This document shows positions 23,801 through 51,322 of a stretch of 64,000 nt of DNA, piece after piece; within the stretch, counting starts at the first letter, position 1, and every line of letters begins with the position of its first letter. This DNA is from Escherichia coli. GTDB taxonomy: Bacteria > Pseudomonadota > Gammaproteobacteria > Enterobacterales > Enterobacteriaceae. The notes beneath the pieces are model-generated. The model was not told where the DNA came from and ran no database searches. It saw only the letters and a list, made by a program, of their open reading frames with translations. The stretch lies in the NCBI RefSeq assembly GCF_003334305.1, contig NZ_QOWS01000003.1; one strand, 5' to 3'. The translations under genes and the position numbers were made by a program.

Positions 23801-23803
23801 GAG

Positions 23804-23840
23804 ATAAAAAAGGCCGGAGCATGCTCCGGCCTTCGTTTTC
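23804..23840. terminator. Bidirectional rho-independent terminator between yjgN and valS
   Basis: Perfect hairpin GGCCGGAGCATGCTCCGGCC flanked by A-run and T-run. Confidence 0.65.
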
Positions 23841-23855
23841 ATTACTGTGTTTTGA

Positions 23856-34213: not shown

Positions 34214-34298
34214 GCCGAAGTGGCGAAATCGGTAGACGCAGTTGATTCAAAATCAACCGTAGAAATACGTGCCGGTTCGAGTCCGGCCTTCGGCACCA
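34214..34298 (+). tRNA. leuX: tRNA-Leu (anticodon CAA)
   Basis: 85-nt sequence GCCGAAGTGGCGAAATCGGTAGACGCAGTTGATTCAAAATCAACC...GGTTCGAGTCCGGCCTTCGGCACCA with long variable arm and encoded CCA. Confidence 0.92.
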
Positions 34299-34499: not shown

Positions 34500-35764
34500 A
34501 TGGCTCTGAGTGATGTGAAGGTCCGTTCGGCTAAGCCGGAAGCAAAAGCCTATAAACTTACTGACGGTGAAGGCATGGTTTTGTTGGTCACCCTAATGGC
34601 TCCAAATACTGGCGACTTCGTTATCGTTTTGGCGGTAAGGAGAAGATGCTGGCGCTGGGGAAATACCCTGAAGTCTCGCTGGTCGATGCCAGAGGTCGCC
34701 GGGATGAAGCCCGTAAGTTGTTAGCTAACGGCGTCGATCCTAGTGAGAACAAGAAAGCTGTTAAGGTAGAGCATGAGCAAGAGGTGATAACGTTTGAAGT
34801 GGTAGCCAGAGAGTGGCACGCCAGCAATCAGAAGTGGTCTGCATCGCATAGCGCTCGTGTATTGAAAAGCCTCGAAGATAATCTCTTTGCTGCTATCGGT
34901 AAGCGGAACATTGCTGATCTGAAGACTCGGGATCTGCTTGTCCCCATCAAAGCGGTGGAGTCGTCTGGGCGTCTCGAAGTCGCTGCTCGTTTGCAGCAGC
35001 ATACTACCGCGATTATACGCTTTGCTGTACACAGTGGATTAATCGACTACAACCCCGCTCAAGAGATTGCTGGTGCGGTTGCTACGGCGAAAAGACAGCA
35101 TCGTGCTGCTCTGGAACTTAACCGCATTCCTGAATTGCTTCAACGCATCTATCACTATTCTGGCAGGCCGTTAACCCGACTGGCGGTTGAACTCACATTG
35201 TTAGTTTTCATCCGTTCAAGCGAGTTGCGTTTTGCTCGCTGGTCAGAAGTTGATTTTGATACTGCCATGTGGACGATTCCGGGAGAACGTGAGCCACTGG
35301 AGGGAGTTAAGCATTCTCAGCGTGGTTCGAAGATGCGGACTCCACATCTTGTACCCTTATCTCGACAAGCTCTCACCATTCTGGAAAAAATCAAAAGCAT
35401 GAGTGGAAACCGTGAGCTGATCTTCGTTGGTGATCACGATCCGCGTAAGCCAATGAGTGAGAATACGCTTAACAAGGCCTTGCGAGTGATGGGCTATGAC
35501 ACGAAAACGGAAGTGTGTGGACATGGTTTCAGGACGATGGCGTGTAGTTCTTTGATTGAATCGGGATTGTGGTCGAGGGATGCAGTAGAGCGGCAGATGA
35601 GTCATCAGGAACGTAGCTCAGTACGGGCGGCTTATATCCATAAGGCGGAACATCTTGGGGAGCGAATGTTGATGCTGCAGTGGTGGGCTGATTATCTGGA
35701 TGCGAATAGAATGGCGGCTATCACTCCATTTGACTATGCAAAGATTAATAGTTCTTTTCGATAA
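34500..35764 (+). pseudogene. P4-type tyrosine integrase, frameshifted near the N-terminus
   Basis: N-terminal MALSDVKVRSAKPEAKAYKLTDGEGMVLLVT is in frame 3 and the rest (from ...YRFGGKEKMLALGKYPEVSLVDAR) is in frame 2; join is at a CCC run near 34591-34593; C-terminal catalytic region (HGFR...R...Y) is intact. Confidence 0.75.
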
Positions 35765-35965: not shown

Positions 35966-37435
35966 TCAAATAACTCCAAGCTTTGCATACAATTCTTTTT
36001 TCTCTTTCATGCTGTTATCCAATGGTGCTACTCGCAATGCCGCTTTCAAATAAGCCGCAGCACCAGAGTAATCACGCATTTGCTCGCAAACTAAAATGAG
36101 TTGGCTTAACACATGGAACTTCATTGGAGTTGTTTGGTTTACTTTCTCCAATAGTACTCTTGCTTCAGAATATTTCGCTTCAAGGCCAAGGATAGATGAT
36201 TCTAAATACATGGTGGCCGCGTTTTCTGCTTCAGCTTGCTTTCGTTGCAACAGCCAGAAATTTGCTTGACTGATATTGCGTAACTGTAGGTTTGCCTTAA
36301 CTATCAACTCGAACAAAGCTGCTGGTTGAGTCAATTTACCCTCAAGTAAGATCGCTTTATTATCTTCTACAACTTTTTCAAAGTCGAATAAGCGATTGGC
36401 GCGATACAAGGCAATAAGTTGCTGATGTAAAGCTTGTAGATCTTTACTGCGGCTATACTCCTGCGACGCTAATTGAGCAGCTTTTTGGTAAGATTGATCG
36501 GACATTGCTTCAAGTACCGCACTTGACCAGTCCTGAGCAGGTTTAGTTTGAAAAACGGGAGCAATAGCACCAACTTTTAATTGCTTAGTGGCAGCAGAAT
36601 CAAATGCATGAATTAAGTCGGAAATAGTGGAAAAGCGATCCTCCGCTCGTTTTTGTAAACAAGTAAGAACCACTTGTTCCAGGTCCGTATGAATAGAGCT
36701 ATTAATCTCTGTCGGAAGCTTGAAAGGTGCGTGGCGCTGAACTTGTGCTGGCGTATCATGGGGCAGCTTTCCTGTCAGCAGCTGGTATAGCAAAACACCT
36801 AAGCTATAGATGTCGCCCAATAGTAGCTCTTCCAGGCTGCCTCTACGGCTATCGACGTTGGAGAACTCTGGGGCCGAATACAGCACAGTCCCGCCATTTT
36901 CACGGGTACGAACGTAAATTTCTTCTGGTAAAGCTGAGCTGCCAAAGTCCGTCAACTTCACCAGGTCCCGCTCTCCAACCAAAATGTTATGTGGCTTAAT
37001 ATCTCCATGAGATATTGGTACTGGTAATTCGGCCAAATAATGCACAGCACAGAGCACTTGACGATATATTCTGAACAACCGTTCATAGGTCTGGCCAAAA
37101 TTACGCTGCCTGTCATCGAGCTTTTGCGCCAGGGTTTGGCTGGGAAAATACTCCATTTCAATATAGAACCATTCATTATCTATACGGCCCATATCAAAAA
37201 TTTGCACAATATTTTCGTGCGGCTCGACGTTTAAAAGCTCTTTACCTTCGGCAAGCTGACGGTCTTCCCGAGTAATATCCTTAGGGATTTTTACTGCGAC
37301 AATTTTTCCATCTTTCAGGCGTTCCGCCCGCCATACCCAGCCATGGCTGCCATCACCAAGGCATTCAAGTAACAGGTATTTGTCACCAAGGCGTTTATTC
37401 GTCCCTGGCAAAAAATGTGCTGATTTTATATTCAC
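35966..37435 (-). CDS. Eukaryotic-like (Hanks-type) Ser/Thr protein kinase with helical/TPR-like C-terminal half
   Basis: Gly-rich loop LGDGSHGWVW, VAVK lysine, catalytic loop HGDIKPHNIL, DFG and SAPE motifs; GTG start overlaps the upstream stop (GTGA). Confidence 0.75.
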   Translation of the reverse strand: MNIKSAHFLPGTNKRLGDKYLLLECLGDGSHGWVWRAERLKDGKIVAVKIPKDITREDRQLAEGKELLNVEPHENIVQIFDMGRIDNEWFYIEMEYFPSQTLAQKLDDRQRNFGQTYERLFRIYRQVLCAVHYLAELPVPISHGDIKPHNILVGERDLVKLTDFGSSALPEEIYVRTRENGGTVLYSAPEFSNVDSRRGSLEELLLGDIYSLGVLLYQLLTGKLPHDTPAQVQRHAPFKLPTEINSSIHTDLEQVVLTCLQKRAEDRFSTISDLIHAFDSAATKQLKVGAIAPVFQTKPAQDWSSAVLEAMSDQSYQKAAQLASQEYSRSKDLQALHQQLIALYRANRLFDFEKVVEDNKAILLEGKLTQPAALFELIVKANLQLRNISQANFWLLQRKQAEAENAATMYLESSILGLEAKYSEARVLLEKVNQTTPMKFHVLSQLILVCEQMRDYSGAAAYLKAALRVAPLDNSMKEKKELYAKLGVI

Positions 37436-37974
37436 ATCAACACCTCATAGTGAATTCTGTCCAAAACAATCATGTTCAGGTTTTTGATAAATAAAAAGCG
37501 ACTAAATACCACCTCAACATCAGGAGCGGCGATTACTTGGGTACCCGTGGACGAAGTAAAACCCATACGGCATATGTCTTTCAGTTTTTGAGTATCAGGT
37601 ACACCTACTAAGCCTTGGCTCCAGGCACTGAGGACCAGGGTTTTGGGGCAATGATTCCAGCGCTGTGCTGCTTCCAGTAAGTTTTTTAATTTTTCTTCCA
37701 GCTTTTGCTGCCCCTTCGCTGAACCATCAAAGCGTTCAAATTCGATTAAACACACAGGCGATGCAGAAGATTTATGAAACCAGCCCGAGTCAGAGCGAAT
37801 ATCAGCACCAAATGTCCCTGGAGCCGGGCATTCCACTACCGCCATAAATGACTGTTCATGCCCGAATGTATTCCAAACGCTACAGCCCAGGCTGTGGACC
37901 AATACATCCTGGTCCAATAGCTTACCGCTTGCTAAAAGTGGAAATGTCTCATTTACCCAGGCAACTTCAGGCAT
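37432..37974 (-). CDS. Hypothetical protein (about 180 aa; the listed ORF extends to 38031)
   Basis: ORF translationally coupled between the HerA-like gene and the kinase gene; no motif recognised. Confidence 0.5.
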   Translation of the reverse strand: MPEVAWVNETFPLLASGKLLDQDVLVHSLGCSVWNTFGHEQSFMAVVECPAPGTFGADIRSDSGWFHKSSASPVCLIEFERFDGSAKGQQKLEEKLKNLLEAAQRWNHCPKTLVLSAWSQGLVGVPDTQKLKDICRMGFTSSTGTQVIAAPDVEVVFSRFLFIKNLNMIVLDRIHYEVLM

Positions 37975-37981
37975 AGGCACC

Positions 37982-39667
37982 TTAGCCACTGAAAGAGCCC
38001 CAAACACGCAGTACCTCTGGTGATTCACCACCGTGAATTAATGCCTTACTACCAACTTTAACAAGCAGTGGTGCAGGGATTGAACGACCACACACCAAAG
38101 CTTCACCGGTTGATAAACTCGGGAGTTCCTCCAGATCAGCTTTGCTCACCATATCTGATGCTTTAGCTATAAATCGTTGATCGTCAGGGTTCTTTAAGCG
38201 CATCGTAATTAGCGTATTGCACTGAGAGGTCACATCTGAATCTAATTTCGATGGACGCTGGCTCACAATGCCAAATCCAACGCCAAATTTACGACCTTCA
38301 CCAGCGATCTTTTTAATAATGCGGTGACTGACTGCGTTGCCGCCGGCCGGGGCAAAATTATGACCCTCTTCGTAAATGATAAAGCATGGGCGCAGCGGGT
38401 CCGTTTTGCTCGAGGCTGCTTTTAATATTTCACTAGATAACAGTGCACAAATGACTTGCTTAGCGGTATCACTCAAACCTTGTAAGTCAACAACGACTAA
38501 ACGCCCCTGTTGATTGCTCGGGCGACCCACCATTTTGTAAATATCAGTTGGCTCAGCCATTGTTGCGCTGTAAAAACTTTTAGCTTCATTAAGCACACGT
38601 GAAAGCTTCATCGAGGCGACGGCGGCACTACGGCCTGATAACGCCTTCGCCTCAGCTTCAGAAAGGTCGTCCCACTCTTTTAACTCTTCAATACCATCAC
38701 CTAATAAGAAGCGTAGGCGGTTAATATCTCGTGGCTCAGTCTTATCTGCAGAGCGCCAATAACGAATTGCAACATCGAGTACTCGTTGCTGCGGTTCCGT
38801 TAAGCCAGGTAATATTTCAGCAATATCGTCCATTTCAAAATGGTCAAACTGAAGCGCTAATGGCGTATTCTTACTGGCGTATTTATGTTTAAAAGATTCA
38901 TGCTGCGGCGAGTAAACCTGAATACCTGCACCGGCGGCTTGCAGCTTTTCAAAGGTCTGTTTTATCAGTGGCAGTGCTTCTTGATCACGCTTATCGTCAG
39001 TGGCTTCTAAGAAGCTTGAGAATTGCAGATTACCGCCAGCGAGGGCTTTACCGTATTCACCATGTGGGTCAAATACTACTACCGTACCGTTATTAACCGC
39101 AACTAAACGCTCAATAATGCGGCCAACTGTATAAGACTTACCTGAACCCGTCATTGCCAGAACAGCCAAATGCTCAGTGACCAACTTGTTCACGTCAATA
39201 AAAACAGGAACTGTATTCTCACCTTTGTCGTAGCCTACTAAGTTACCTAAGTGCAAACTGGAGTGTTCATTAAATTCGTAAAAATCACTCAAAAACTGAA
39301 AATCGACGGTTTCAACAGCGGTACCCGGGTTAAGCGGGCGACGTGGAATTTTGATTTGACGAGTAACAGGATCGCGGTAACCAACCAGCTCGACCTGAGC
39401 AAACATATTCTCACCAGTTACATTCGCACCGGGCAAAAGCTCAAGCTCGGTTACACCATCGCCAAAGCCGGCGTTATAGAGCATATTAGTACGGCTTATC
39501 TTGGTCACTCGCCCCAGTACGGCGACTTGCCCCTCATCTTTGCGTTCCTGGTGCATAATGCGTACAAACTCACCACGGCGTACTGAAAACGAGTCTTGTA
39601 CAACCATAGTTAACTGACTGGCATCACCAGTGTTACCGACTAATTTACCTAAAACTTTATAAGCCAT
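37982..39667 (-). CDS. HerA/FtsK-like ATPase
   Basis: Walker A AMTGSGKS, DPHGEY motif, Walker B FIIYEEGHNF, arginine-finger region SQRPSKLD. Confidence 0.75.
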   Translation of the reverse strand: MAYKVLGKLVGNTGDASQLTMVVQDSFSVRRGEFVRIMHQERKDEGQVAVLGRVTKISRTNMLYNAGFGDGVTELELLPGANVTGENMFAQVELVGYRDPVTRQIKIPRRPLNPGTAVETVDFQFLSDFYEFNEHSSLHLGNLVGYDKGENTVPVFIDVNKLVTEHLAVLAMTGSGKSYTVGRIIERLVAVNNGTVVVFDPHGEYGKALAGGNLQFSSFLEATDDKRDQEALPLIKQTFEKLQAAGAGIQVYSPQHESFKHKYASKNTPLALQFDHFEMDDIAEILPGLTEPQQRVLDVAIRYWRSADKTEPRDINRLRFLLGDGIEELKEWDDLSEAEAKALSGRSAAVASMKLSRVLNEAKSFYSATMAEPTDIYKMVGRPSNQQGRLVVVDLQGLSDTAKQVICALLSSEILKAASSKTDPLRPCFIIYEEGHNFAPAGGNAVSHRIIKKIAGEGRKFGVGFGIVSQRPSKLDSDVTSQCNTLITMRLKNPDDQRFIAKASDMVSKADLEELPSLSTGEALVCGRSIPAPLLVKVGSKALIHGGESPEVLRVWGSFSG

Positions 39668-40814
39668 TATTCAATCCCTCATCGAGGCCTGCCAACCACC
39701 CTGCCTCAATATCATTATTCTTTAGTGCCTGGTGTAAACCCTGGCGATAAAACGTAGCAAATTTAGGTAAAATACCAAGCTGTTGATAACCAAGTAATTG
39801 TGGCAACGGCATTGCATTACCTTTGTTTTGCATATCCAGCACCATCAGGCGAGAGGCAACTAAATCGAGATCAGCACTTTTCCATTCTGGTTCGTCACCC
39901 GCTAATTGCACCATTTTTATCTGTCCACCTCGGGCACTACGGAAGTGAAAACCAATTAGACCTTGCTTAGCTTCAATATTGGGTTCAATGCGCTTTTCTT
40001 GTTCAGACAAACGAAATGCGATGGTGCGCGAATAGTTGCCTAAAATGCCATTGATAAATCGCAAATCTCCCACGCCAACCAAACTTTCATCCAGTCCTTC
40101 CAGATTTTGCATCAACTCTTTAGAAAACCCATCAGATGCTAAAATTTGTTTGCGTCCTTGTTCGGTACGTAAATCTTGTTTGGCGATACTTACAATGGCA
40201 CTAAAGCGCTCAGCCAAAATGCTCGCAAGTACTACACCATTTTGATTCCAGGGAAAAATTCTGGAGCGATGGTTTTGCCAAAAAGTTTCTATCACTTGTC
40301 TGGTTTTTTCGTACTCTTGTTTATGACGGACATTTCTCTCCAGCGGAGCCATATCCCGTGCTAAAAACAACGGCGTATCCAGCAAAATTAAATCGCCAGG
40401 CTCATAACCTAAAAGTTTTTTCTCAACTAACTGATAAGCCTGACGAATTTCAATTAAATCAAGCCGTTTACGCTGAGCTTCAAAATCAATATCATCCAGT
40501 TCTGATACCGAGTCGCTACCCACCGTGCTGACTTTATTGTCATCTATTAACAAATCTGTGCGCACTGCTGCACTGGCATAAATAAAACCACCCAATACCT
40601 TGTCTAAGCACGATTTAGTCGCAATACCGGCTACGCGTAAATTAACAATTGTGGGCTTGGGGACCGCTTTCACTAAGCCAGCATCACGGAATAGCGGCGC
40701 CACTTGCTCAATATCACGGACCTGTTTAAGCAAGCGTCCTGCACTTCCCGGTAAGCGAAGCTGGCTATCGATGGCGAGCGATTGCGCTAAATTCATCGTT
40801 TTGTTCTCATTCAT
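39657..40814 (-). CDS. Hypothetical protein (about 385 aa), possible partner of the HerA-like ATPase
   Basis: Coupled ORF (11-nt overlap with the HerA-like start); start set at MNENK; no diagnostic motif recognised. Confidence 0.5.
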   Translation of the reverse strand: MNENKTMNLAQSLAIDSQLRLPGSAGRLLKQVRDIEQVAPLFRDAGLVKAVPKPTIVNLRVAGIATKSCLDKVLGGFIYASAAVRTDLLIDDNKVSTVGSDSVSELDDIDFEAQRKRLDLIEIRQAYQLVEKKLLGYEPGDLILLDTPLFLARDMAPLERNVRHKQEYEKTRQVIETFWQNHRSRIFPWNQNGVVLASILAERFSAIVSIAKQDLRTEQGRKQILASDGFSKELMQNLEGLDESLVGVGDLRFINGILGNYSRTIAFRLSEQEKRIEPNIEAKQGLIGFHFRSARGGQIKMVQLAGDEPEWKSADLDLVASRLMVLDMQNKGNAMPLPQLLGYQQLGILPKFATFYRQGLHQALKNNDIEAGWLAGLDEGLNNGL

Positions 40815-40816
40815 GC

Positions 40817-41692
40817 TTATAGCGTTCCTGTGTGTAGCTGCTCGCCAAGTAATGGGGCATAAGCCCAATATTGCGAGGCTTGTAGGCATGTTTTACCGGT
40901 AGCTGTTATGCCCGCGTCGTCGATAAAATCGTGCTGCCGCAACATCTCACCCCGCTTGACAATATCAAGGCTATTAACATCAAACATCAGCTTAACCGCA
41001 TTATGCTCAGACAACGCTTGTAAGTTCATGCCACCGCCAGCGTAGAGTAATAGCAATACAACTAGATCGTGCTTATCTGGCGTGTAGTCAGTTGATGGCG
41101 CTTTAGGTTCGATTATTCGTTCAGCAATGCCTGCATGGTCCACAAACCAATTCAACCAGCTCACCAGGAGCTCACTATGATCGAGTAAAGTCAGCGACCA
41201 CAAAGGTAACGTGGTAAAGGCTAATAGCCCACTGTTGCTGTGTTTTCGTATGTAGCGGGTATGCACTACATCACCGGCCTGGTGCTGGTAGCGATCTGCG
41301 CTGCCAGTAAAGCCAGCAATAGCCTGGTCTGTTTCACTGGCTAGCAAAGCGGTTAGCCCCGGTTCCTGCCCCCTCAAGCTCGCTGGTACTAACTGCCAAT
41401 CCAGTGGATAGGGCAATTGCGCTAATAAGGTAAATTGTTCTGCTTTCAGGTTTATTACCAAAGCGGCACAACCTGCCTGCATAGCCCAGTGATACAGGTG
41501 CTGCATAGTATTAGCGTCAGTCAACTCTTCTGCTTGCACTATTAACAAACCGCTGGCTGGCGGCGAGCTAATCCAATCCTTCATTAAGGGGGTAGCCCCC
41601 GCAACAGTTTGCAAAAAACGGCCTTTACGATTACTGGCCAGTGCCGCAGATAAATAACGACTCATCGCGTCACCTCTACAAACCAGTGGCAA
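40817..41692 (-). CDS. Hypothetical protein (about 290 aa)
   Basis: Coupled ORF overlapping the stop of the 1428-aa gene; no motif recognised. Confidence 0.5.
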   Translation of the reverse strand: MPLVCRGDAMSRYLSAALASNRKGRFLQTVAGATPLMKDWISSPPASGLLIVQAEELTDANTMQHLYHWAMQAGCAALVINLKAEQFTLLAQLPYPLDWQLVPASLRGQEPGLTALLASETDQAIAGFTGSADRYQHQAGDVVHTRYIRKHSNSGLLAFTTLPLWSLTLLDHSELLVSWLNWFVDHAGIAERIIEPKAPSTDYTPDKHDLVVLLLLYAGGGMNLQALSEHNAVKLMFDVNSLDIVKRGEMLRQHDFIDDAGITATGKTCLQASQYWAYAPLLGEQLHTGTL

Positions 41693-44600
41693 AGGTAAGG
41701 CGCATTTTTACAATGCCTTTGTCTACAAGTCCTTTCTGTTGCTCAGGTGTTAACACGGGTTCCTGATTTTGGCTCAAAGCCTTATAAATCGGTTGCCAAT
41801 CCGCCAGTGTTAAGCCTGTATCATTTAATATTTGCTCACCTTGACTCTGCCATTTGGCCTGGGTGCTTTCACACACCTGTTGAAGTTCTCTGACACCCAA
41901 ATTGCTCACATCCTCCAGAGTCAACGCTGCTGGTTCCGCTTGCTTTTGAGAAGCCAATAGCGGTTTTAATAACGGCAGCCAGCTGTTTACCTGTGCGATG
42001 GAGTTGCGTCTTACTTGGTTTAGACGCTCTTCAATTTTAAGTAGCTGGCCTTGAATCGGTGTAAGTTGACCGCGTGCCGGTTTTAAAAGCTCTTCTGGTA
42101 AATCCCGTAACGATGAAAACTGCCCATTGCGCAAACTGTTTTGCATACTTTGACGCTTGCTCTCTGCATCACTGGGGAGATCGGCAATAGCATCTTCAAT
42201 GAGCTGTAATTTCATTACCAGTTTTGGTAGCTCTGCAATGTCATCGGCGAACTGATACTCAGCCGTGGCGCTACTAAGCCATTCTTGCAGTTGTTGTGCA
42301 CGTAGTTTTTGCTCTGTGAGGTTATTAACCAGCTTACTAAATCGTTCTTTGCAGTTGCGGTAGCTGGACAAAATATGCCCCTGAATCTCCGCTATCGGCA
42401 ACTGTTGATCATTGTGCAGGTTTAAACCCACTTCTTGCGCTAAGGCTGAAAGCTTGTCATGCGCTCTACCTAAATCGAGTTTACGCAGGTAATGCAGTAA
42501 GGTATCGCTATCTGCTTGCTGCTCTTTTCGGCCAGTGGCACTGCTGGTATCGTCTTTTAACGCTCCATCTAAAATATGACCTATGGTGCGCAGCGTGTTG
42601 GTGTACAGACGTTTCGGAAAATTCGTCAGCGGGGCACACTCTGTTTCAACATCTATGATTAAATCAACGAGTCGGTTGTTGATACGCTCAGCGCTGCACT
42701 CAACAAACTCGGCAAATAAACAGGCCTGTTCAATCCGTTGATAAAGCGAGGTCGTTTTGTCTTCTAAGCTGAGAATATGGGCATCTTTTAGCATAGGCCT
42801 GGAACTATTAAGCGGTTTAACCTTTGCTACCAGCTCCAGCACTTCAGCGCGTTTGTGGATAAGCCCTGCCAATACTTTCGTGTCGTTGGCCTCGACCATA
42901 TCAGCCAATTGTTCTTCTTGCTGTTTGAGCACGTTAAATAGCGATTGTGCTTTTTCCAGCTGCTCTTTAGCTTCCACGGTGACGAAACCCAGCTTATTTT
43001 TACCCAGTGGCGCGAACATTTCATTAATGCGTGCATAACCATACACGCGGCTCATGACTTCCACATTGGCTGCATAGCTGCCCATATCGTTACCACGGAA
43101 CCAGTTTTGCGCTTCTCTAATGGCATTTTCTAAGCGGGAGCGCGGGTAGTGCTCCCAAATTGCCTGTTTTTCTGTTGGATTGGTTAAAGTGAGTAAGTTC
43201 AGCTCTCCACACCACCACATCCAGTCATTAAACACGCCTTTGGCGGTAACACTCGTTTCAGCCACATAGGCGAAATAAAACTGTTGCTTAAAGCCTTCGA
43301 ATTGCCACTTGTGCTTTTTATTAGGGTGAGCAATACGGGCTAAAAATAATGGGATCTGCGCCTGGCTTCGCTGCACATTATTAAGTTCAGTAAATAGCCC
43401 GGCATGTTCATCGGCAGTGTAACCTTTGGCAATATAGCTGCCCGGCACCTTAAGTTTATCCAACAAGCTGCTCAGCTCATTCACTGGCACGCCGTGTTGC
43501 TGCTGTAAATCGAGAATGCCATTTAACTCAGGGTGAGCAATGGCCAGCTGATACCAGCCTTTAAACAACAGGTCTCGGTCATTCGGTGATAATTTACCAT
43601 CTACCTTTAACGGCCAGGCAATTAAACCGCGCTGCTGCAAACGCTGGCGCCACTTGTGAATGGCATCCGTGGCAAAGGTTGTCAGGGCATGCAGCTTGTT
43701 TTTGAATTTCGCGGTAAAGCTGTCGGCAGTTAAATTCACGCCGTGCAACTGACATGCTGCCAAACTTAAGCCAATACGCTCTAACTGGTCTGCTTCGCTT
43801 GGGTTGACATAATGCAGCAGTATCGCATCACGCAACTCATTTCTTTCATCCAGTCGGCTGTATTGCTCCATGAGATGTGCAGAAGCAGTTAACGCTAATA
43901 CTGGCGTGCGACCATTTTGGTGGCTGTGGTTTGCCGCAAAGGTGTGAAGATTGTTCAGCTCAATTAGGTTGCTGACCCAGGCAAACAAGGCTTTACCTTC
44001 TGGGTGAAGCTTAAATCCATCCAGGGTAAGTAAACCACCCTGGCGGCCACGGGGCTCGGTTAAAATGGCCAAAGGTGCATCGTCGCTGCCCGCTTTATTA
44101 CTCAGCAAGTTTTCATCATAGGTCCAGTTGTTATCAAGTAATCTCACAAAGCCCGTTACACGGGCTAATGCCTTGATGAGCGGCTTCTGGCTACTTTGTT
44201 TGCTAAGTTCACTCATTGCCTGTTCATGAGCGTCGCCCATGGCGGGATCTTTAAAAATCAGTGAGTTTTGCTGGGCACTGCGATAGCGCAAATCCAGGCG
44301 CAGTAACATCGCCACACTGGGGCCAATATGCGTTGCTTCGCTGGCGTCCAGTTCGGTAGTTTCACCCACTAGCTTGTGCCATAAGGCATCGGCAGCGAAT
44401 TCAATCGCTGGGTGGTCATACAGCAAGCTGAGTAAGTATTTAAACTCACCTTTTGACAGAGGTAGTAATACCGCGCCTTTATCGCCGCTTGCGGCTTGTT
44501 CTTTAATTGAAAAAGTACGCAGGTTATCCAGCAAAGTATCTAAGTTCAGCGCTTGATCTACTGCAGGGTAGTACCATTCATCTTTATCGCGGCGGAATTT

Positions 44601-45962
44601 GGCTTGCTCCAGGGCTTGTCGGCACTGTAGGCGGTCAATGCTCAGTTTGCGGTAATGAGCGGCTATGGGTTCCAGATCTTCGTTTTTCAGCGCCAGCAAT
44701 TCTGTGGCATAGCCCATTTCAGCTAAGCGCACGGGTAATTGGCCGTAGAGCAAACTACGACATTCGGTCAATAGTGCCTGGTCGCGAGTTTGAATGCCTT
44801 CTATCGCGCCTTTATCCAGCACATGCCTGGCTACGCGGCCAGAGCCTGCCAGCACAGCTTCAAATAAATCGCCCACATCCTTGATACTGCGGCCTGCTTG
44901 TTGGTATTGGCTCAGCACTGCATCCACATTAGCCATGACCACGTTAAACCAACCGAAGTTGGCACCACTCATGGCGTATGCAGCTTCCACTAAACCAGCA
45001 GGGTAATTAAAACCCAGCTTGCCGTCTTTTAAGAGGCTTGCCACATAGTCTGATACATCGGCAAAGGCATTATGCTCAAGTTCCACTAACTCAAAGCGGC
45101 GTGCGACCGATTGAATTTCGCGCAATTGCTGGCCAAGCAGTGGTGAACACAGCGCTACATAGCGCAACCATGGAAGTTTACGGCGAGGGTCTTCCTCTTT
45201 AATTGCTTTACCAATCAGGCGAATGGCCTGGCCATCGAGGCGTTTATTTTGTTCATCTTCCAGGCCAAAGGTGGCGGCTTCTGCAACGGTTTCCAGCTCA
45301 TCCAGCACCACCAACATATACTGCACGCCAAAGCTCTTTAATACTTTATAGGCGGCTTGCACCAAACTGACTACCAGCGTTTGGTCAGTATAGAGGTCTT
45401 CTTCGCTGTGGTTGGCGTTCAGCTGTAAGGCATCTGCTAACAGTTCAGATTTAAAGCCAAATGGCATTAAGCGTTCATAGGCTTGTTTGGCAATTTCACT
45501 TTGAATCGATCCATCAAAGGTTTGGGTGGCCAGTGGTAATAGCGCCTGATATAAACCAAAAGCAAACCAGTTATCCGAGTTTTGATAATCTGATGCCACT
45601 TGCGAGTAGCGAATGTAGAGCGCCAGGTATTTGTCTTGCGTGTCGCGATTAAACAGCTGCTTATCGTGCAGTTGGCCTTGTTCGTCGCGGACAAACCAGC
45701 CCCTTGAACAGTCGTTAATTTGTGCAACCAATTCATGGCCTAAACGTGATTTACCCCGACCCCATTCGGCTTCGACGGCAAACACATGGGCAAAGCGATC
45801 ATCGTCGTGATCCACCGTATGCAAAAAGGTTTGAAAGCGTTTAAAAAAGCGGCTCTGGCCCACTAACGGGTCGCGAGGTGGATAATCTGATACGCCCGTC
45901 GCCGCCCAGCGATGTTGTTTTGCCAGGCTATCAACCATCTGTTCGTTTAATTCAAAACTCAT
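41676..45962 (-). CDS. Large (1428 aa) P-loop NTPase-domain protein
   Basis: Walker A-like VEAEWGRGKS and Walker B-like YMLVVLDELE in the N-terminal 250 aa; the long remainder has no recognisable motifs; ATGA overlap with the upstream gene. Confidence 0.6.
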   Translation of the reverse strand: MSFELNEQMVDSLAKQHRWAATGVSDYPPRDPLVGQSRFFKRFQTFLHTVDHDDDRFAHVFAVEAEWGRGKSRLGHELVAQINDCSRGWFVRDEQGQLHDKQLFNRDTQDKYLALYIRYSQVASDYQNSDNWFAFGLYQALLPLATQTFDGSIQSEIAKQAYERLMPFGFKSELLADALQLNANHSEEDLYTDQTLVVSLVQAAYKVLKSFGVQYMLVVLDELETVAEAATFGLEDEQNKRLDGQAIRLIGKAIKEEDPRRKLPWLRYVALCSPLLGQQLREIQSVARRFELVELEHNAFADVSDYVASLLKDGKLGFNYPAGLVEAAYAMSGANFGWFNVVMANVDAVLSQYQQAGRSIKDVGDLFEAVLAGSGRVARHVLDKGAIEGIQTRDQALLTECRSLLYGQLPVRLAEMGYATELLALKNEDLEPIAAHYRKLSIDRLQCRQALEQAKFRRDKDEWYYPAVDQALNLDTLLDNLRTFSIKEQAASGDKGAVLLPLSKGEFKYLLSLLYDHPAIEFAADALWHKLVGETTELDASEATHIGPSVAMLLRLDLRYRSAQQNSLIFKDPAMGDAHEQAMSELSKQSSQKPLIKALARVTGFVRLLDNNWTYDENLLSNKAGSDDAPLAILTEPRGRQGGLLTLDGFKLHPEGKALFAWVSNLIELNNLHTFAANHSHQNGRTPVLALTASAHLMEQYSRLDERNELRDAILLHYVNPSEADQLERIGLSLAACQLHGVNLTADSFTAKFKNKLHALTTFATDAIHKWRQRLQQRGLIAWPLKVDGKLSPNDRDLLFKGWYQLAIAHPELNGILDLQQQHGVPVNELSSLLDKLKVPGSYIAKGYTADEHAGLFTELNNVQRSQAQIPLFLARIAHPNKKHKWQFEGFKQQFYFAYVAETSVTAKGVFNDWMWWCGELNLLTLTNPTEKQAIWEHYPRSRLENAIREAQNWFRGNDMGSYAANVEVMSRVYGYARINEMFAPLGKNKLGFVTVEAKEQLEKAQSLFNVLKQQEEQLADMVEANDTKVLAGLIHKRAEVLELVAKVKPLNSSRPMLKDAHILSLEDKTTSLYQRIEQACLFAEFVECSAERINNRLVDLIIDVETECAPLTNFPKRLYTNTLRTIGHILDGALKDDTSSATGRKEQQADSDTLLHYLRKLDLGRAHDKLSALAQEVGLNLHNDQQLPIAEIQGHILSSYRNCKERFSKLVNNLTEQKLRAQQLQEWLSSATAEYQFADDIAELPKLVMKLQLIEDAIADLPSDAESKRQSMQNSLRNGQFSSLRDLPEELLKPARGQLTPIQGQLLKIEERLNQVRRNSIAQVNSWLPLLKPLLASQKQAEPAALTLEDVSNLGVRELQQVCESTQAKWQSQGEQILNDTGLTLADWQPIYKALSQNQEPVLTPEQQKGLVDKGIVKMRLTFATGL

Positions 45963-47260
45963 AACGACGATCCTTGAAGGTTTATTCTATTGGCGGCGCG
46001 TTTTTTATTGGCATAGCAGTTTTGCGCCAGTTGCTTAATGGTCCGTTGTAACGTTTGGCTTTTGTAGCCAAATAGTGGTGCTAACGGCAGGCTATAACAG
46101 GCATCGCTGAAGCTTGTATGAATTCGATATTGGCCGGCCTCTCCACGACCCGCCTCGGTAAATTGCCAGATTTTTTTTGCCAACAATTCGGCAATGAATG
46201 AGCTCAGGACGCGGTTTAGGCGGTTGATGCTTTCCGTGTTCGCATCGAGTGCCGGGTAGAGGGGTATATTGAGCTCACCGAGCAGAAGCACAAGAAACTC
46301 GGCCAAACTACCCAGACTCACCTCATCACCTTCAATGCCCTGTACCGCCACATTTATTTGACCGGGGGCAAAGGCATTTTGCCCGGCAGGTAAGGTGAGC
46401 AACAAACCGCCACGTTGCTCGGCAGCCCAGGCATCTTGCACAAAGATAATTAGACTGAGTAAAAATAACCAGGGCTGTTGGGCGAATAGCTCGGTAAGCG
46501 GCATGTTGTCATGACCCGAGCGGGACACCAATAACCAATCGGCATTGGGTTTAAGGTTATGTTCATCAAGCAAGGTATTAGGGAGTGCTAACAACCGCCC
46601 ACTACACCAGTTATTTGTCAGTTGTTTTGCGGTGACATCCACCGCTTGTATAGGTGCCGGTGGTTCATTTTGTTCGCTCACGGTAAACAAGGTATAGCTG
46701 GTGCGCAAAATACGACATAGCGCGGGAATGGCAGCATTGTCGTTTAGGCTATGACCGAGCAAATCGCGTTCGGTTTGTGCCAGAGGGCCGGCAATGATTT
46801 GCGGCGTGGTGGCAGTGCTTTCCAGCTGGGCTAAGACCCATTCACTGGCATTGCCCAGTTGCTGAATGAGTTTAACCAATACCATTGTGTCACTCATCGT
46901 GCCTGCTTCCTGGCAGCGAGCGGCGGCTAAATTGATCCAATGTTGGCGAACATCTGGGTTTAAGCCCAACAACGCTAATTGCCATTCACCTGACTGGCTT
47001 AAATCGTTAAAGGCATCAAGCAATGGTGCAGTGAGGCTAAAGGCGCTAACGATATCCGTTTCAGCGTCGTTCTTTTTCGGCTGTATTATTGGTTGTAGCA
47101 GTGACCTAAGGGCAGGCACAGCCGCCAATAACAATGCTGCTTTGTTGGCGTTCAAACCACCTTGTTGCCAAAGCTGCAGGCAGAGGTTAAGTGCCGCTTC
47201 GCTATTTACGGGGTCGTTATATTGCCTGGTTGTACTGCTGTCCGTGCCCCTTGTCTCCAT
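45959..47260 (-). CDS. Hypothetical protein (433 aa)
   Basis: Coupled ORF between the HsdS-like gene and the 1428-aa gene; no motif recognised. Confidence 0.5.
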   Translation of the reverse strand: METRGTDSSTTRQYNDPVNSEAALNLCLQLWQQGGLNANKAALLLAAVPALRSLLQPIIQPKKNDAETDIVSAFSLTAPLLDAFNDLSQSGEWQLALLGLNPDVRQHWINLAAARCQEAGTMSDTMVLVKLIQQLGNASEWVLAQLESTATTPQIIAGPLAQTERDLLGHSLNDNAAIPALCRILRTSYTLFTVSEQNEPPAPIQAVDVTAKQLTNNWCSGRLLALPNTLLDEHNLKPNADWLLVSRSGHDNMPLTELFAQQPWLFLLSLIIFVQDAWAAEQRGGLLLTLPAGQNAFAPGQINVAVQGIEGDEVSLGSLAEFLVLLLGELNIPLYPALDANTESINRLNRVLSSFIAELLAKKIWQFTEAGRGEAGQYRIHTSFSDACYSLPLAPLFGYKSQTLQRTIKQLAQNCYANKKRAANRINLQGSSL

Positions 47261-47262
47261 CT

Positions 47263-48741
47263 TTACTCTTCAGCCTCCGCTTGCGCCGCCTCTTCCAGCA
47301 AACTGTATAACTCATCCACATCGCTAAATAGCGGTGTGGCACCTTCAATGGCATAACCCTCAGCGCTCAGTTTGCTTAAAATCGCTTGATCAAAGCTGCT
47401 GTCGCCATCTTCCAGGGCTTGTTGGGCCTGGATTAGTTGTTGCTCAGTCAGTTGGCCTTCGATTAATGACTCAACTAGAGTTTTGGCAGATGCTGTTAAC
47501 TTTTTTGCATATGCTGCCGTAGTAACGGCTAGTCTCAGCTTACTTCCTATTTCTCTATTCTTCGCTATGTCAATCGGAATCAGAATATTTAACAGGTTTT
47601 CTGAAGTCACTTTTGGTACAACGCTGCCAGTAGTCACACCTTTCCAACACGGAAAGTGTTTATCCAGGAACCTACAAATAGACTCAATATCATATTCATC
47701 TTTTACCTTTAAAACCCAAACATGGTTGTTTGCCCAAAACTTTCCATCAGCTACATTTGCACAGCCAATAGAGCCATCTTGCGCAATAATCAGATATTTA
47801 CCGTTGAAATTGAATTCGGTATGAGTATCTATTGGACCTGATGCGCCATAGTAAAAATATGGTCCGGGTACTCTGTCTTCCGATTTAATAGGGTCGCCAC
47901 ATTTGCATTTACTAATGAAATTAGATAGTTTTGATGAATTCCTAAAGGTCATTTGACTATCGGCCGCACGTGCAAACTCAGGAGCTAAAGACACTGCTGA
48001 TAATACCTGTTGTTTCATTCTTCTAGGTTTCAATGTTAATGAATCAACAAGGTTGAAGTGAAATAAATCTTTAATTTTTCTATCAGCCATTCCTTCAAGT
48101 CGTTTCGCCCAAGCGCGTAACTGCTCGGCTTGGCGAACTTTATCCCCGATGTATTTTTGGGCTAGAGGTAAAACTTTAGGAACCGCTAGCGAGCGGACAC
48201 TTGGGAAGTCAATTGCAGGGCGAGTTGCGCCATATGCTTCCTTCCAGATCGCTACTTGTCCGGTTTTGCTATTCAAATATGCCACCAAGAAATAGGCGTC
48301 AACTTTTTTGGGATCGGGCTTGAATCTGACTGAGTGCTGACTAATGTTGGCCGGTAGATGTTTAGCTGACACAACAGCCGATTTACCAAATTTTGCACCA
48401 GTAATCGTAAGTAAAACGTCGCCATCCACTAATCGGCTGCGCTTTAATTTTTCATCATCTTCATCGTTAATAAAAACAGCTTCTTCAGCTTGCAAGAACA
48501 TTTCTTCAACTTCAGAAGTGCGATAAAACTTAACACGGCCTTTTTCTAAATAATTTGCTCCTAAAGGTGTTGCGCCACTAGCCACCCCGCGCTTTGAATC
48601 AATTACCGCTTCTAGGGGCAAAGCACCTAGGTTGTCTTTTATCTTATTAATTTGTCTTTCAAATCGCGGTTGATAGTGCCAAGGATCAATCCGCCTTTCA
48701 GACAATTGTTCGGGTGTTCTTTTAAAAATAGTTGCCATCAC
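47263..48741 (-). CDS. hsdS: Type I restriction-modification specificity subunit (HsdS-like, two target-recognition domains)
   Basis: Two TRD-like halves (RIDPWHYQP...GDVLLTITGAKFGKSAVV; VPGPYFYYGASGPIDT...) separated by a conserved helical spacer (LAVPKVLPLAQKYIGDKVRQAEQL) with a C-terminal helical region; 4-nt overlap with the MTase gene. Confidence 0.7.
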   Translation of the reverse strand: MMATIFKRTPEQLSERRIDPWHYQPRFERQINKIKDNLGALPLEAVIDSKRGVASGATPLGANYLEKGRVKFYRTSEVEEMFLQAEEAVFINDEDDEKLKRSRLVDGDVLLTITGAKFGKSAVVSAKHLPANISQHSVRFKPDPKKVDAYFLVAYLNSKTGQVAIWKEAYGATRPAIDFPSVRSLAVPKVLPLAQKYIGDKVRQAEQLRAWAKRLEGMADRKIKDLFHFNLVDSLTLKPRRMKQQVLSAVSLAPEFARAADSQMTFRNSSKLSNFISKCKCGDPIKSEDRVPGPYFYYGASGPIDTHTEFNFNGKYLIIAQDGSIGCANVADGKFWANNHVWVLKVKDEYDIESICRFLDKHFPCWKGVTTGSVVPKVTSENLLNILIPIDIAKNREIGSKLRLAVTTAAYAKKLTASAKTLVESLIEGQLTEQQLIQAQQALEDGDSSFDQAILSKLSAEGYAIEGATPLFSDVDELYSLLEEAAQAEAEE

Positions 48742-50885
48742 TCACCCCGCTTATAAGCCGATACAATCTTATCCAGATCGTTTGCGACACCGGCGTTATA
48801 GTCTTCGATATTGTTTTTCACCACATAACCCAATGTTTCAGCCACTGCCATAAACACGTCGGTTTGTGGCTCGGGCAAAAATTGCTCTGGCTGGTTGGGG
48901 TTAGCATGGCGTTTTTGTAAATACAAAATCGAGGTTTTGGCCCCCGTACCGGAGAGTTTAAAGCAGTCGCTCGGCAATGAAATTACTGCTTTTACAATAG
49001 CTTTACCGCCAACAAACTCGCCGGTTTTTTCGTCTTTTTTCCCCATAATGTACTCACGGACATAACGGTCGCCGGAGTTACATAAAATACCATCAGGCAG
49101 CACTATTAACAGGCGGCCACCGGGTTTAAGCAGTTGCAGGCAGCGGTCGATAAAAAGTACTGCTGGGTCAATAGTGGCACCTACCGGTTGCCAGTTGCCC
49201 TTGCTATCGGGCTTGCTGCCCAGCGCGAGCCCTGCGGTTGTAGGCTGCAGGCTGTAAAACGGCTTTTTATCAGTCCCGCCCGTTCTGCGCAAATCGGTAC
49301 GGTAGCCCGCCCATTTAGGCTCGCCGTTTTCATCCAGCTCTAAATCACCGATATCCTGCCACTTCATTTTCACGTGGTCATACCAGGCGTTGTAGCTATC
49401 AACGACTTTTTTGGTCGGACGAAAACCACCGAGCACTTGCTCCATATTGGCTTCGTAATTGGCTTTTGAGTTTTGACCATTTTTGCCTTTATCAAATTTA
49501 GGCGTACCGAACGGCGGGTTGGTGCAAATCAGGTCAAAGCTATTCGGCTTCAGAGCGTTAGTAGTGAGTGAGTTGTCGGTATAAAAAATCTGCGCTTTGG
49601 GGGCACCTTGCAATGCCATATTCACGCGGGCCAGCATTACCATGCGTGGTGCAGCATCGGCACCGGTAAATGCACAGTCGCGTAATTTTTGTTTCAATGA
49701 TTCTTTTTTATCGTCGGCCAGCACCAGCTTAAAATCGATCCATTTATCAATCTGGCTTAACGCCACCGAGCCAAAACCAAAGGAGCCACAGGTGGGGTCG
49801 CAGAAACGAAAATCGCCATTGGCTAAGCGCGATCGCATTTCATCGTCATCGTCGATGTCGTGCATAGCAATTTCTAGCATGGCCTGTTTTACTGGGTTTG
49901 GTGTTAAATAAACGCCAAGGCCACCTTTGGATTCAAAGTTAGCGCGTAGGAATACATCAAACACTCTGCCTAGTAAATCTCCTGACACATCAGCCAACGT
50001 GCCGTGTTCTTTCGCGATTTTACCGTCGTTGGTTTTTACCGGACCCAGGTTTTGTATTGCTTCCAGCAAATCCTGATAGTTTTTCGCAACAGACAGTCGC
50101 AGGTGTGTTTCTTTACTAAAGATGGGGTTACGTGAGCCATCATCTGAGATCACAACGTAGTTTTCGTGGCTTTTAAATTCCTCAAAGGCGGCTTTGATTT
50201 GGGCAACGGCTTTATCGCCGTGGCTCTCCACATATTGCCAATCAAAGACATCACGAAAACGCAGGGTATTTCCCTCATCATCTTTAAAGGTAAGGTCTTC
50301 ATCGTGATGCAGGCGGAAAGTTTCTAAAAACAGAAGCTTAGCTACTTCTTCAATAATGTCGTTCTTGTCGTTTACCTTGTCTTTGGTAACGCGATAAACA
50401 TTTTCATGGAAGGCATCAAATCGCTGCATTAAGCGTGTATAAACACGCATCGACCAGCGAAAGGTTGGATCACGCTCCATGCGATCAAAGCTACGTAATT
50501 CTTCCAGACCAGGCAGGGTATCTGCACCGTGGGTACCGTCAGATCCATCGGCACCGAACAAGGCCAAAATACGTTGGTTCAAGCCATCGTCCACAACGGC
50601 ATATACTGGCCAGTCACCTTCGATATCACTTAACAGCTGATAGGCTAAATCATCAAACTTTGCAGTGTCAGCGGCGTATTCCCAATGGCCTTCTGTCAGC
50701 GCAATCAACATGACTGGTGGCGTTAAGTTGCCTTCAACCAGGCCTTGAATGAGACCAGCCTTGGCGAATTCATGCTCGGGTAATTCGACCAATGGCTGAG
50801 TAAACTCGGAGTGCTGTTTGACCAGTTTATTGAACAGTGCTTCTAGCTGCTGTTGCGGGTCTTGTTTTTTTGCTTCTTTTGCCAT
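48738..50885 (-). CDS. hsdM: N6-adenine DNA methyltransferase, type I HsdM-like (715 aa)
   Basis: AdoMet motif I FRFCDPTCGSFGF, motif IV DLICTNPPFG, motif X region GVYLTPNPVKQAMLEI, C-terminal GRLLIVLPDGIL. Confidence 0.75.
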   Translation of the reverse strand: MAKEAKKQDPQQQLEALFNKLVKQHSEFTQPLVELPEHEFAKAGLIQGLVEGNLTPPVMLIALTEGHWEYAADTAKFDDLAYQLLSDIEGDWPVYAVVDDGLNQRILALFGADGSDGTHGADTLPGLEELRSFDRMERDPTFRWSMRVYTRLMQRFDAFHENVYRVTKDKVNDKNDIIEEVAKLLFLETFRLHHDEDLTFKDDEGNTLRFRDVFDWQYVESHGDKAVAQIKAAFEEFKSHENYVVISDDGSRNPIFSKETHLRLSVAKNYQDLLEAIQNLGPVKTNDGKIAKEHGTLADVSGDLLGRVFDVFLRANFESKGGLGVYLTPNPVKQAMLEIAMHDIDDDDEMRSRLANGDFRFCDPTCGSFGFGSVALSQIDKWIDFKLVLADDKKESLKQKLRDCAFTGADAAPRMVMLARVNMALQGAPKAQIFYTDNSLTTNALKPNSFDLICTNPPFGTPKFDKGKNGQNSKANYEANMEQVLGGFRPTKKVVDSYNAWYDHVKMKWQDIGDLELDENGEPKWAGYRTDLRRTGGTDKKPFYSLQPTTAGLALGSKPDSKGNWQPVGATIDPAVLFIDRCLQLLKPGGRLLIVLPDGILCNSGDRYVREYIMGKKDEKTGEFVGGKAIVKAVISLPSDCFKLSGTGAKTSILYLQKRHANPNQPEQFLPEPQTDVFMAVAETLGYVVKNNIEDYNAGVANDLDKIVSAYKRGE

Positions 50886-50935: not shown

Positions 50936-51322
50936 CTAATTTATCAGTACCAGCAAGGGGCCTTTAATCTCTATCTGCGCGTGCTTCTGTGCCAGTTTGC
51001 GTATCTGCTGTTCACTGGTCGTAATACCAGCAGGGAGCTTTTTCAGTACTTGTGCAAGGGGCATGCGCCCACCAGCTTGATGCAACAATGATACCAAATG
51101 TGCCGCGATATCAGGTATAACCTGGTACGTTGCCGTTGTGGGCCCTTTTAGATGATTACTTTGAGGCAATGAGGCAAGCCATAGCGAAACTTGAGACTGG
51201 CTAAAGCCAAGTGTTTGCCAGAGGGTTTGGTTCTCATTAAATACAACGGCGGCGCTTCTGGGAGTTGCTGTTTGCTGAGTTATTAGTTGTTCCAGGCTTT
51301 GTCGCTGGTATTCATGGGTCAT
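50936..51322 (-). CDS. Hypothetical protein (128 aa), third gene of the McrBC-like module
   Basis: ORF whose start overlaps the McrC-like stop by 4 nt; no motif recognised. Confidence 0.45.
   Translation of the reverse strand: MTHEYQRQSLEQLITQQTATPRSAAVVFNENQTLWQTLGFSQSQVSLWLASLPQSNHLKGPTTATYQVIPDIAAHLVSLLHQAGGRMPLAQVLKKLPAGITTSEQQIRKLAQKHAQIEIKGPLLVLIN

Follow-up and report, generated by a model that had tools for sequence, protein, structure and literature searches.

A ten-gene MADS-like candidate restriction cassette in Escherichia coli

MADS (mad1-8) is an experimentally validated eight-gene system in which methylation tells self from non-self, and a putative 11-gene 'MADS-like' system of Pseudomonas aeruginosa, madl1-11, has been described bioinformatically only, in the Supplementary Notes of the same work (Maestri et al. 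2023/2024; bioRxiv 10.1101/2023.03.30.534895). In the madl order a helix-turn-helix (HTH) or WYL protein comes first, an N6-methyltransferase third, a specificity subunit (S) fourth, an ATPase sixth, a HerA/translocase ninth and a kinase eleventh, with unannotated genes between them (bioRxiv 10.1101/2023.03.30.534895). Here we describe a cassette of ten genes in a 64-kb stretch of Escherichia coli DNA (the window; all positions are counted from its first letter). On balance we take it for the E. coli copy of a horizontally mobile restriction cassette of ten genes, associated with methylation (MADS-like), that works by the mechanism set out below. This gene set is not described in the literature searched on HerA/FtsK 'capture systems' (PMC10853773), BREX-related systems (PMC12839542) or P. 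aeruginosa hotspots (PMC10250203), and we found no mention of the MADS-like system there beyond the Maestri et al. preprint.

A ten-gene unit with a recurring order and a variable specificity subunit

Nine open reading frames (ORFs), all in one direction on the minus strand, fill positions 35966–50885, a region 100% identical to that of E. coli strain A7 and others. The ORF listing and the RefSeq/PGAP annotation of the identical region bear out the nine co-directional genes of a preliminary description made from the letters of the window, and the tight packing that it had pointed to also holds, the junctions with PGAP starts being -4, +7, -11, +2, +10, -4, +2 and -1 nt (that is, from -11 to +10 nt). 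For three of the genes the longest ORFs are 291, 410 and 199 amino acids (aa), and we use the probable true lengths of 282, 385 and 180 aa. Nine genes do not make up the full unit, as the preliminary description had supposed: a 128-aa ORF 50 nt upstream of the methyltransferase gene belongs to it, and we number the ten genes from this ORF (gene 0) to the kinase gene (gene 9; Table 1). Five of the cassette genes are annotated as hypothetical by PGAP.

The modules co-occur in other genomes, consistent with the single unit proposed in the preliminary description. Scanning one genome per species gave 77 loci, on whose ORFs iterative hidden Markov models (HMMs) were run; the loci come from Alpha-, Beta- and Gammaproteobacteria, Desulfobacterota, Myxococcota, Cyanobacteria, Planctomycetota, Acidobacteriota, Verrucomicrobiota, Fibrobacterota, Bacillota and Chloroflexota, ten phyla in all. 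Contig ends leave 66 loci uncut, and 63 of these keep the order 0-1-2-3-4-5-6-7-8-9; since this fixed order recurs, the packing is far beyond chance and the cassette is not a chance neighbourhood. In the three exceptions (Chloroflexi, Desulfobacteraceae) the layout by position is unchanged, with strongly diverged counterparts of genes 0, 3 and 5. The neighbourhoods in Desulfonema, Pseudomonas veronii and Paraburkholderia contain the same nine genes together with a gene of 128–143 aa just upstream of the methyltransferase. Identity to the E. coli genes is highest for HerA, at 60–99% across phyla, and lowest for genes 0, 3 and 5. Among 5426 complete E. coli genomes, the operon is present in whole or in part in 268, and 80% or more of it in a single piece in 207 (~4–5%).

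The specificity subunit stands apart from this pattern, its identity being 37–65% in genomes where the flanking genes are 87–99% identical. The S allele of the window is common, at 80% or more, to 36 of 211 E. coli genomes, and the alleles of the rest match by one half or by the conserved spacers only. These partial matches indicate that S swaps its target-recognition domains, even within E. coli, a shuffling typical of working type I-like S subunits.

Three loci, from Anaerolineaceae, Desulfobacteraceae and Chloroflexi (L082, L083 and L084), form a divergent sub-type of the cassette in which genes 0, 3 and 5 have counterparts that can hardly be detected. In two of the three, gene 4 is 1644–1657 aa long, with ~310 extra N-terminal residues, and there is an extra gene of ~395 aa.

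Component proteins and genomic setting

An HsdM/HsdS-like pair, a giant P-loop protein, a HerA-type ATPase and a Hanks-type kinase had been named in the preliminary description; all are confirmed by PADLOC, NCBIfam, Pfam and motifs, and the motifs called there (VAVK and HGD of the kinase, Walker A of HerA and of the 1428-aa protein, NPPF of the methyltransferase) are all intact. The methyltransferase matches PADLOC MTase_I (PDLC03023) over its full length with 1577 bits and mad2 at 2e-20, contains Pfam N6_Mtase and has NPPF at residue 456; against NCBIfam MADS2 it scores 111.6 bits, the cut-off being 720. The S subunit matches PADLOC Specificity_I (7.7e-164), mad5 (6e-16) and Pfam Methylase_S, and scores 90 bits against NCBIfam MADS5, for which the cut-off is 400. 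HerA is found by PADLOC HerA (1e-56), NCBIfam helicase_HerA (6e-59) and Pfam DUF87 and HAS-barrel, and has the motifs GSGKS (174–178) and IIYEE; the generic HerA models lie far above mad8 (6.6e-26). The best PADLOC match of the kinase is mad6 (1e-45), followed by PD-T4-6 (1e-39) and a weak match to PglW. Its motifs GDGSHG27, VAVK49, HGD145, DFG163 and APE188 are intact, and its 116.9 bits against NCBIfam MADS6 (NF047741), with a cut-off of 460, mark it by sequence as a homologue of MAD6 and not an equivalog.

The 1428-aa product of gene 4 has intact Walker A (GRGKS, 68–72) and Walker B (LVVLDE, 217–222) motifs. Pfam KAP_NTPase was found in the N-terminal 640 aa of 16 of 34 family members at E<=0.1 (best 2.4e-4; E. 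coli protein 0.21), and we take residues ~1–350 to be a putative KAP-like P-loop domain. Strong conservation is confined to residues 1–350; the ~1,000 aa that follow are poorly conserved and partly coiled coil, and would form a scaffold. Homologues keep the length (1420–1444 aa), are all called hypothetical and contain no Pfam domain. A profile of gene 4 gave coiled-coil noise only against PDB sequences, an exhaustive HMMER search found no bridge from the family to other P-loop families, and when the N-terminal profile was used in a word-indexed search, the matches were all fragments from the family itself. As the N-terminal domain has 181 representatives among 1.84e9 clustered proteins and the full-length matches are all of 1250–1650 aa, gene 4 is, judged by these matches, the signature protein of the cassette.

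The preliminary description had left five products as unknowns. Two of them, the 433- and 282-aa proteins, are still without a fold, but the 1428-aa protein is putatively KAP-like, and structure prediction gave folds for two proteins that had no library match: the 385-aa protein is NurA-like and the 180-aa protein BamHI-like. The NurA (RNase H-like) fold of gene 6 is encoded beside HerA; its conserved residues are D87 (on the paired strand), D107, D108, D146 and H290. Gene 8 has a predicted alpha-beta-beta-beta-alpha-beta core with acidic catalytic residues on beta2 and beta3, and its invariant E48, D62, E78 and E80 are arranged as in BamHI-type (E/D/ExE) sites. PADLOC, NCBIfam and Pfam gave no HsdR or REase_I match for any of the ten proteins, so that a hidden HsdR, which the preliminary description had set as a check on the unassigned proteins, was not found; because two of these proteins have nuclease folds, the restriction activity is plausibly present in the NurA-like and BamHI-like proteins.

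Gene 0, found in 69 loci by iterative HMM, is homologous (26–34% identity) to the gene that holds this place in Desulfonema, Pseudomonas and Paraburkholderia. Its residues 68–129 give weak winged-helix-type matches only (RNA polymerase delta N-terminal domain, E 0.3–0.7), and it is possibly made of two small winged-helix-like domains. The same procedure found gene 3 in 78 loci and gene 5 in 75. Gene 3 had no match in Pfam, PDB, PADLOC, NCBIfam or PHROG, whether by profile or member by member, and gene 5 gave no signal in the databases searched. Scans of PADLOC, NCBIfam, Pfam and PHROG returned nothing significant for the 128-, 433-, 1428-, 282-, 385- and 180-aa proteins, and profile searches of PDB sequences with alignments A2–A6 and A8 returned coiled-coil noise or non-significant winged-helix matches only. 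All-against-all comparison with hhalign detected no internal homology among the ten families, and the idea that the 433-aa protein is a cryptic target-recognition domain was rejected on the same grounds, hhalign finding no homology to other cassette families.

The cassette lies in a leuX island beside other restriction genes, as in the preliminary description; these genes, immediately upstream of it, are McrBC, a type IV system, and a phosphorothioate-DNA-binding SBD-HNH endonuclease. The tyrosine integrase adjoining the tRNA gene is frameshifted in the annotation of the identical strain A7, and an attR-type direct repeat of the leuX tRNA end was looked for and not found; the island may for these reasons be immobilised. 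The McrC stop overlaps the gene 0 start by 4 nt, so that one may ask whether McrBC and the cassette are co-transcribed or functionally coupled. In every relative from the Enterobacterales (Erwinia, Rosenbergiella, Ewingella, Pantoea) the leader position is filled by McrBC, whereas other clades have a regulator gene there, and the gene in front of the cassette differs by clade: it is a MAD1-type Xis-HTH protein in nine loci (84.7 bits; NCBIfam cut-off 80), and another form of it is a BrxR-type WYL regulator. A second, MAD5-like S gene lies directly upstream of gene 0 in 31 of the 77 loci, in many phyla (e.g. L022, L024, L029, L034, L038, L044 and L069), and is lacking in E. coli; it could supply a different specificity or take part in switching as a substrate. 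In other genomes (L085 1-3496, L006 1116-3479, L007 17488-18783, L005 20099-24311) the neighbours of the cassette are defence-like too: among them are a sacsin/NOV_C-type giant protein, a SIR2_2 protein, a Schlafen-group-3 helicase with SymE, and an AAA_15/21 ATPase with a protein of >1500 aa behind it.

No homologue of gene 4 was found on plasmids by tblastn of PLSDB. A tblastn search of plasmids with the kinase, made in search of a MADS operon for comparison, matched nothing but generic kinases and a single fragmented remnant in E. coli. This remnant, on the IncF conjugative virulence plasmid NZ_CP098193.1 (L086, 352-1807), is a copy of the kinase gene broken into small ORFs with 68% aa identity; it stands alone, with no other cassette genes present on the plasmid. 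Elsewhere in the window, the low-GC stretch at 18000–24000 (0.37–0.47) is the core E. coli yjgL/argI/bdcA region, present in all 5426 genomes, and is not an island.

Table 1. Genes of the cassette and flanking features in the window
Feature	Position	Strand	Product	Basis
leuX	34214-34298		tRNA-Leu(CAA)	
Integrase	34500-35764		tyrosine integrase, beside leuX	
Gene 9	35966..37435	-	489-aa Hanks-type Ser/Thr kinase (non-RD, HGD), TPR-like C-terminal half	PADLOC, NCBIfam, motifs
Gene 8	37432..37974	-	180-aa predicted restriction-endonuclease-fold (PD-(D/E)xK) protein	structure prediction
Gene 7	37982..39667	-	561-aa HerA/FtsK-type hexameric translocase ATPase	PADLOC, NCBIfam, Pfam
Gene 6	39657..40814	-	385-aa predicted NurA-fold (RNase H-like) protein, HerA partner	structure prediction
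Gene 5	40817..41665	-	282-aa fast-evolving protein	conserved in cassette; no database match
Gene 4	41676..45962	-	1428-aa signature protein, N-terminal putative KAP-like P-loop NTPase	motifs, Pfam KAP_NTPase
Gene 3	45959..47260	-	433-aa fast-evolving protein	conserved in cassette; no database match
Gene 2	47263..48741 (or start 48738)	-	491-aa HsdS-like specificity subunit, two target-recognition domains	PADLOC, Pfam
Gene 1	48738..50885	-	715-aa HsdM-like N6-adenine DNA methyltransferase	PADLOC, NCBIfam, Pfam, NPPF456
Gene 0	50936..51322	-	128-aa small protein, fast-evolving, madl2 position	conserved position in other phyla
McrC, McrB	51319-54730		McrC and McrB	
SBD-HNH	54900-55772		phosphorothioate-binding SBD-HNH endonuclease	

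Candidate mechanism and alternative readings

From the folds, motifs, gene linkage and S diversification described above we infer a series of steps. The HsdM/HsdS-like proteins would form an M2S type I-style methyltransferase that marks bipartite host sites with N6-methyladenine (m6A), and the same M/S module, in a larger complex, would read unmethylated sites on incoming DNA; the 1428-aa KAP-like NTPase/scaffold would organise this complex and act as an ATP-dependent switch. The 180-aa BamHI-like endonuclease would then cut the DNA, and the HerA hexamer with the NurA-fold protein would load on the break and degrade the DNA processively, these two replacing HsdR together with the 180-aa protein. 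The Ser/Thr kinase with its TPR part may gate the complex or serve as a back-up, as in proposals for PglW and Stk2. More speculatively, the fast-evolving 128-, 433- and 282-aa proteins might be adaptors or sensors facing phage counter-measures.

Several points weigh against this mechanism, or against the frame in which we set it. In gene 6 the position of the canonical NurA beta1 Asp is an invariant G63, and given this replacement the NurA-like protein may be a non-catalytic adaptor. Foldseek gave no match for gene 8 at E<=0.001, which leaves its nuclease fold weakly supported, and the KAP_NTPase match is below Pfam significance in most members of the gene 4 family. Genes 0, 3 and 5 are without assignment. 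Co-transcription of all ten genes is a deduction from their spacing only; a promoter and terminator scan of the cassette returned fewer sites than shuffled sequence and was uninformative. The defence role of the family is predicted from its genes alone, and the membership of the window cassette in the MADS-like family is a match by gene order and domain description, not by sequence comparison.

The cassette could also be a mechanistically new class of restriction, in which M/S recognition is coupled to BamHI-like-primed HerA-NurA instead of an HsdR motor, with a KAP NTPase scaffold and a kinase license, and which has only the methylase, S, kinase and HerA in common with MADS. We hold this stronger claim tentatively, as a possibility that we do not quite favour.

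Abortive infection is a less likely explanation. KAP and STAND-like NTPases are often sensors, and here the kinase or KAP NTPase together with the fast-evolving proteins would sense a phage product and cause HerA-NurA and the small nuclease to attack all DNA, or bring about global phosphorylation, so that the cell dies, with methylation in a minor protective or regulatory part. The relationship of the kinase to PD-T4-6 and Stk-type defence kinases fits such a scheme, as do the three fast-evolving components, and partners of HerA are reported to target molecules of the host in other defence systems (PMC11472057). Yet every locus keeps a methyltransferase and a hypervariable S, a retention difficult to account for unless self and non-self are told apart by sequence, and phages escape the related MADS epigenetically. 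We regard abortive infection as unlikely.

It is quite improbable that the locus consists of two adjacent and independent systems, an orphan type I M and S pair and a separate HerA/NurA/kinase module. The methyltransferase and S do match best the generic type I families (REBASE-derived PADLOC models), and a 50-nt gap and weak promoter-like sites are present, but across ten phyla the full set of ten is found together in one fixed order, even where identity is 22–35%, no half-only locus was seen, and the tight junctions span the supposed boundary (S/433 +2 nt, 433/1428 -4 nt).

We give very little credence to the view that the cassette is a MADS operon of the canonical mad1-8 kind or a variant of BREX/Pgl: mad2, mad5, mad6 and mad8 are matched, PglW weakly so, and a MAD1-type leader occurs in relatives, but the MADS2, MADS5 and MADS6 scores are far under their cut-offs, Mad3, Mad4 and Mad7 are unmatched, PglZ, BrxC and PglY have no match even at E<=10, and PGAP gives no MADS names. 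A module for DNA repair or island maintenance (addiction) with HerA-NurA at its core, the pair that resects DNA ends in archaea and Deinococcus (PDB 7f6d, 9x1l; PMC12977600), is highly improbable in view of the patchy, strain-specific distribution on integrase-bearing islands beside other restriction genes, the hypervariable S and the BrxR- or MAD1-type regulators. The fixed co-occurrence of ten genes and the hypervariable S thus weigh against most of these alternatives to a methylation-associated restriction cassette.

About one in 20–25 complete E. coli genomes contains this 15-kb cassette, which is mostly 'hypothetical' to annotation pipelines and unnamed in defence-finder HMM libraries, and an order frozen from Clostridia through Cyanobacteria to E. 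coli implies a multi-subunit machine under strong selection. Were the restriction reading true, methylation-gated immunity around HerA and a protein kinase would have been built at least twice, in MADS and in the MADS-like cassette, and HerA-NurA, known as a repair complex, would gain a role as restriction effector. The cassette may affect phage therapy and DNA transfer into carrier strains. The system is open to direct tests in E. coli, whose natural variants of the S allele can serve as controls of specificity.

Comparison with known systems

The cassette shares with type I restriction-modification systems a separate HsdM-like methylase and a two-domain HsdS with shuffled target-recognition domains, but lacks HsdR (a superfamily 2 helicase fused to a PD-(D/E)xK nuclease) and has seven other conserved genes; a canonical type I system was rejected, as no HsdR was found by PADLOC, NCBIfam or Pfam. 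BREX type 2 and Pgl resemble it in that exclusion depends on methylation and in having a methylase together with a Ser/Thr kinase and a large P-loop ATPase. They consist, however, of the PglW (kinase), PglX (methylase), PglY (ATPase) and PglZ (phosphatase) set, whereas the cassette methylase is type I-like with a separate S and is accompanied by HerA and by the NurA-fold and restriction-endonuclease-fold proteins; BREX/Pgl was rejected because no PglZ or DUF499 BrxC/PglY was detected (PADLOC at E<=10 on the unassigned proteins; Pfam). DndFGH/DptFGH/SspFGH was rejected in the absence of DptF, DptG and DptH homologues in PADLOC and NCBIfam. The preliminary description had reported neither HsdR nor PglZ, and the PADLOC, NCBIfam and Pfam searches agree, with no BrxC or DptFGH signal either. 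Relative to the HerA-NurA end-resection complex and the TdpAB defence pair (PDB 8wet), the NurA-like protein of the cassette has Gly at the canonical beta1 catalytic Asp, and the pair is embedded among methylase and kinase genes, with no Mre11-Rad50 or phosphorothioate module.

MADS is closer: the methyltransferase and S, the Ser/Thr kinase and the HerA-type ATPase are common to both, and some relatives of the cassette have an Xis-type HTH leader. MADS also has Mad3 (an AbiEii/OLD-Toprim ATPase-nuclease), Mad4 (DUF4276) and Mad7 (DptG-like), none of which is matched in the cassette; this has instead the KAP-like 1428-aa protein, the NurA-fold protein, the small restriction-endonuclease-fold protein and three unknowns, in a different gene order. 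PADLOC, NCBIfam and Pfam gave no MAD3 or MAD4 match. For MAD7, a mandatory component in the model of the MADS authors, and for Dpt, no cassette protein had a PADLOC or NCBIfam match even at E<=10, nor was a DndG chain returned by the PDB profile searches. Canonical MADS was rejected on the missing Mad3, Mad4 and Mad7 matches and on scores of 111.6/720, 90/400 and 116.9/460 for MADS2, MADS5 and MADS6.

The closest counterpart is the MADS-like system. The preliminary description recognised no named system in this gene set, and the whole operon is indeed unnamed in the libraries searched, but its 'undescribed' was too strong, since the gene order is that of madl1-11. Genes 0–9 of the window correspond to positions 2–11, with the methyltransferase, S, ATPase, HerA-like protein and kinase agreeing at 3, 4, 6, 9 and 11, and one of the loci (L085) reproduces all 11 positions, its BrxR-type WYL leader overlapping gene 0; for these two reasons we file the cassette as a putative member of the MADS-like family. 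The E. coli cassette differs in that McrBC stands in place of the position-1 regulator. The preprint gives no function for the genes here assigned as NurA-like, BamHI-like and KAP-like. What was already known is thus the family, named 'MADS-like'; what is new here is the tenth gene, the predicted nuclease folds of two proteins, a KAP-like assignment for another and the conservation of the cassette across ten phyla.

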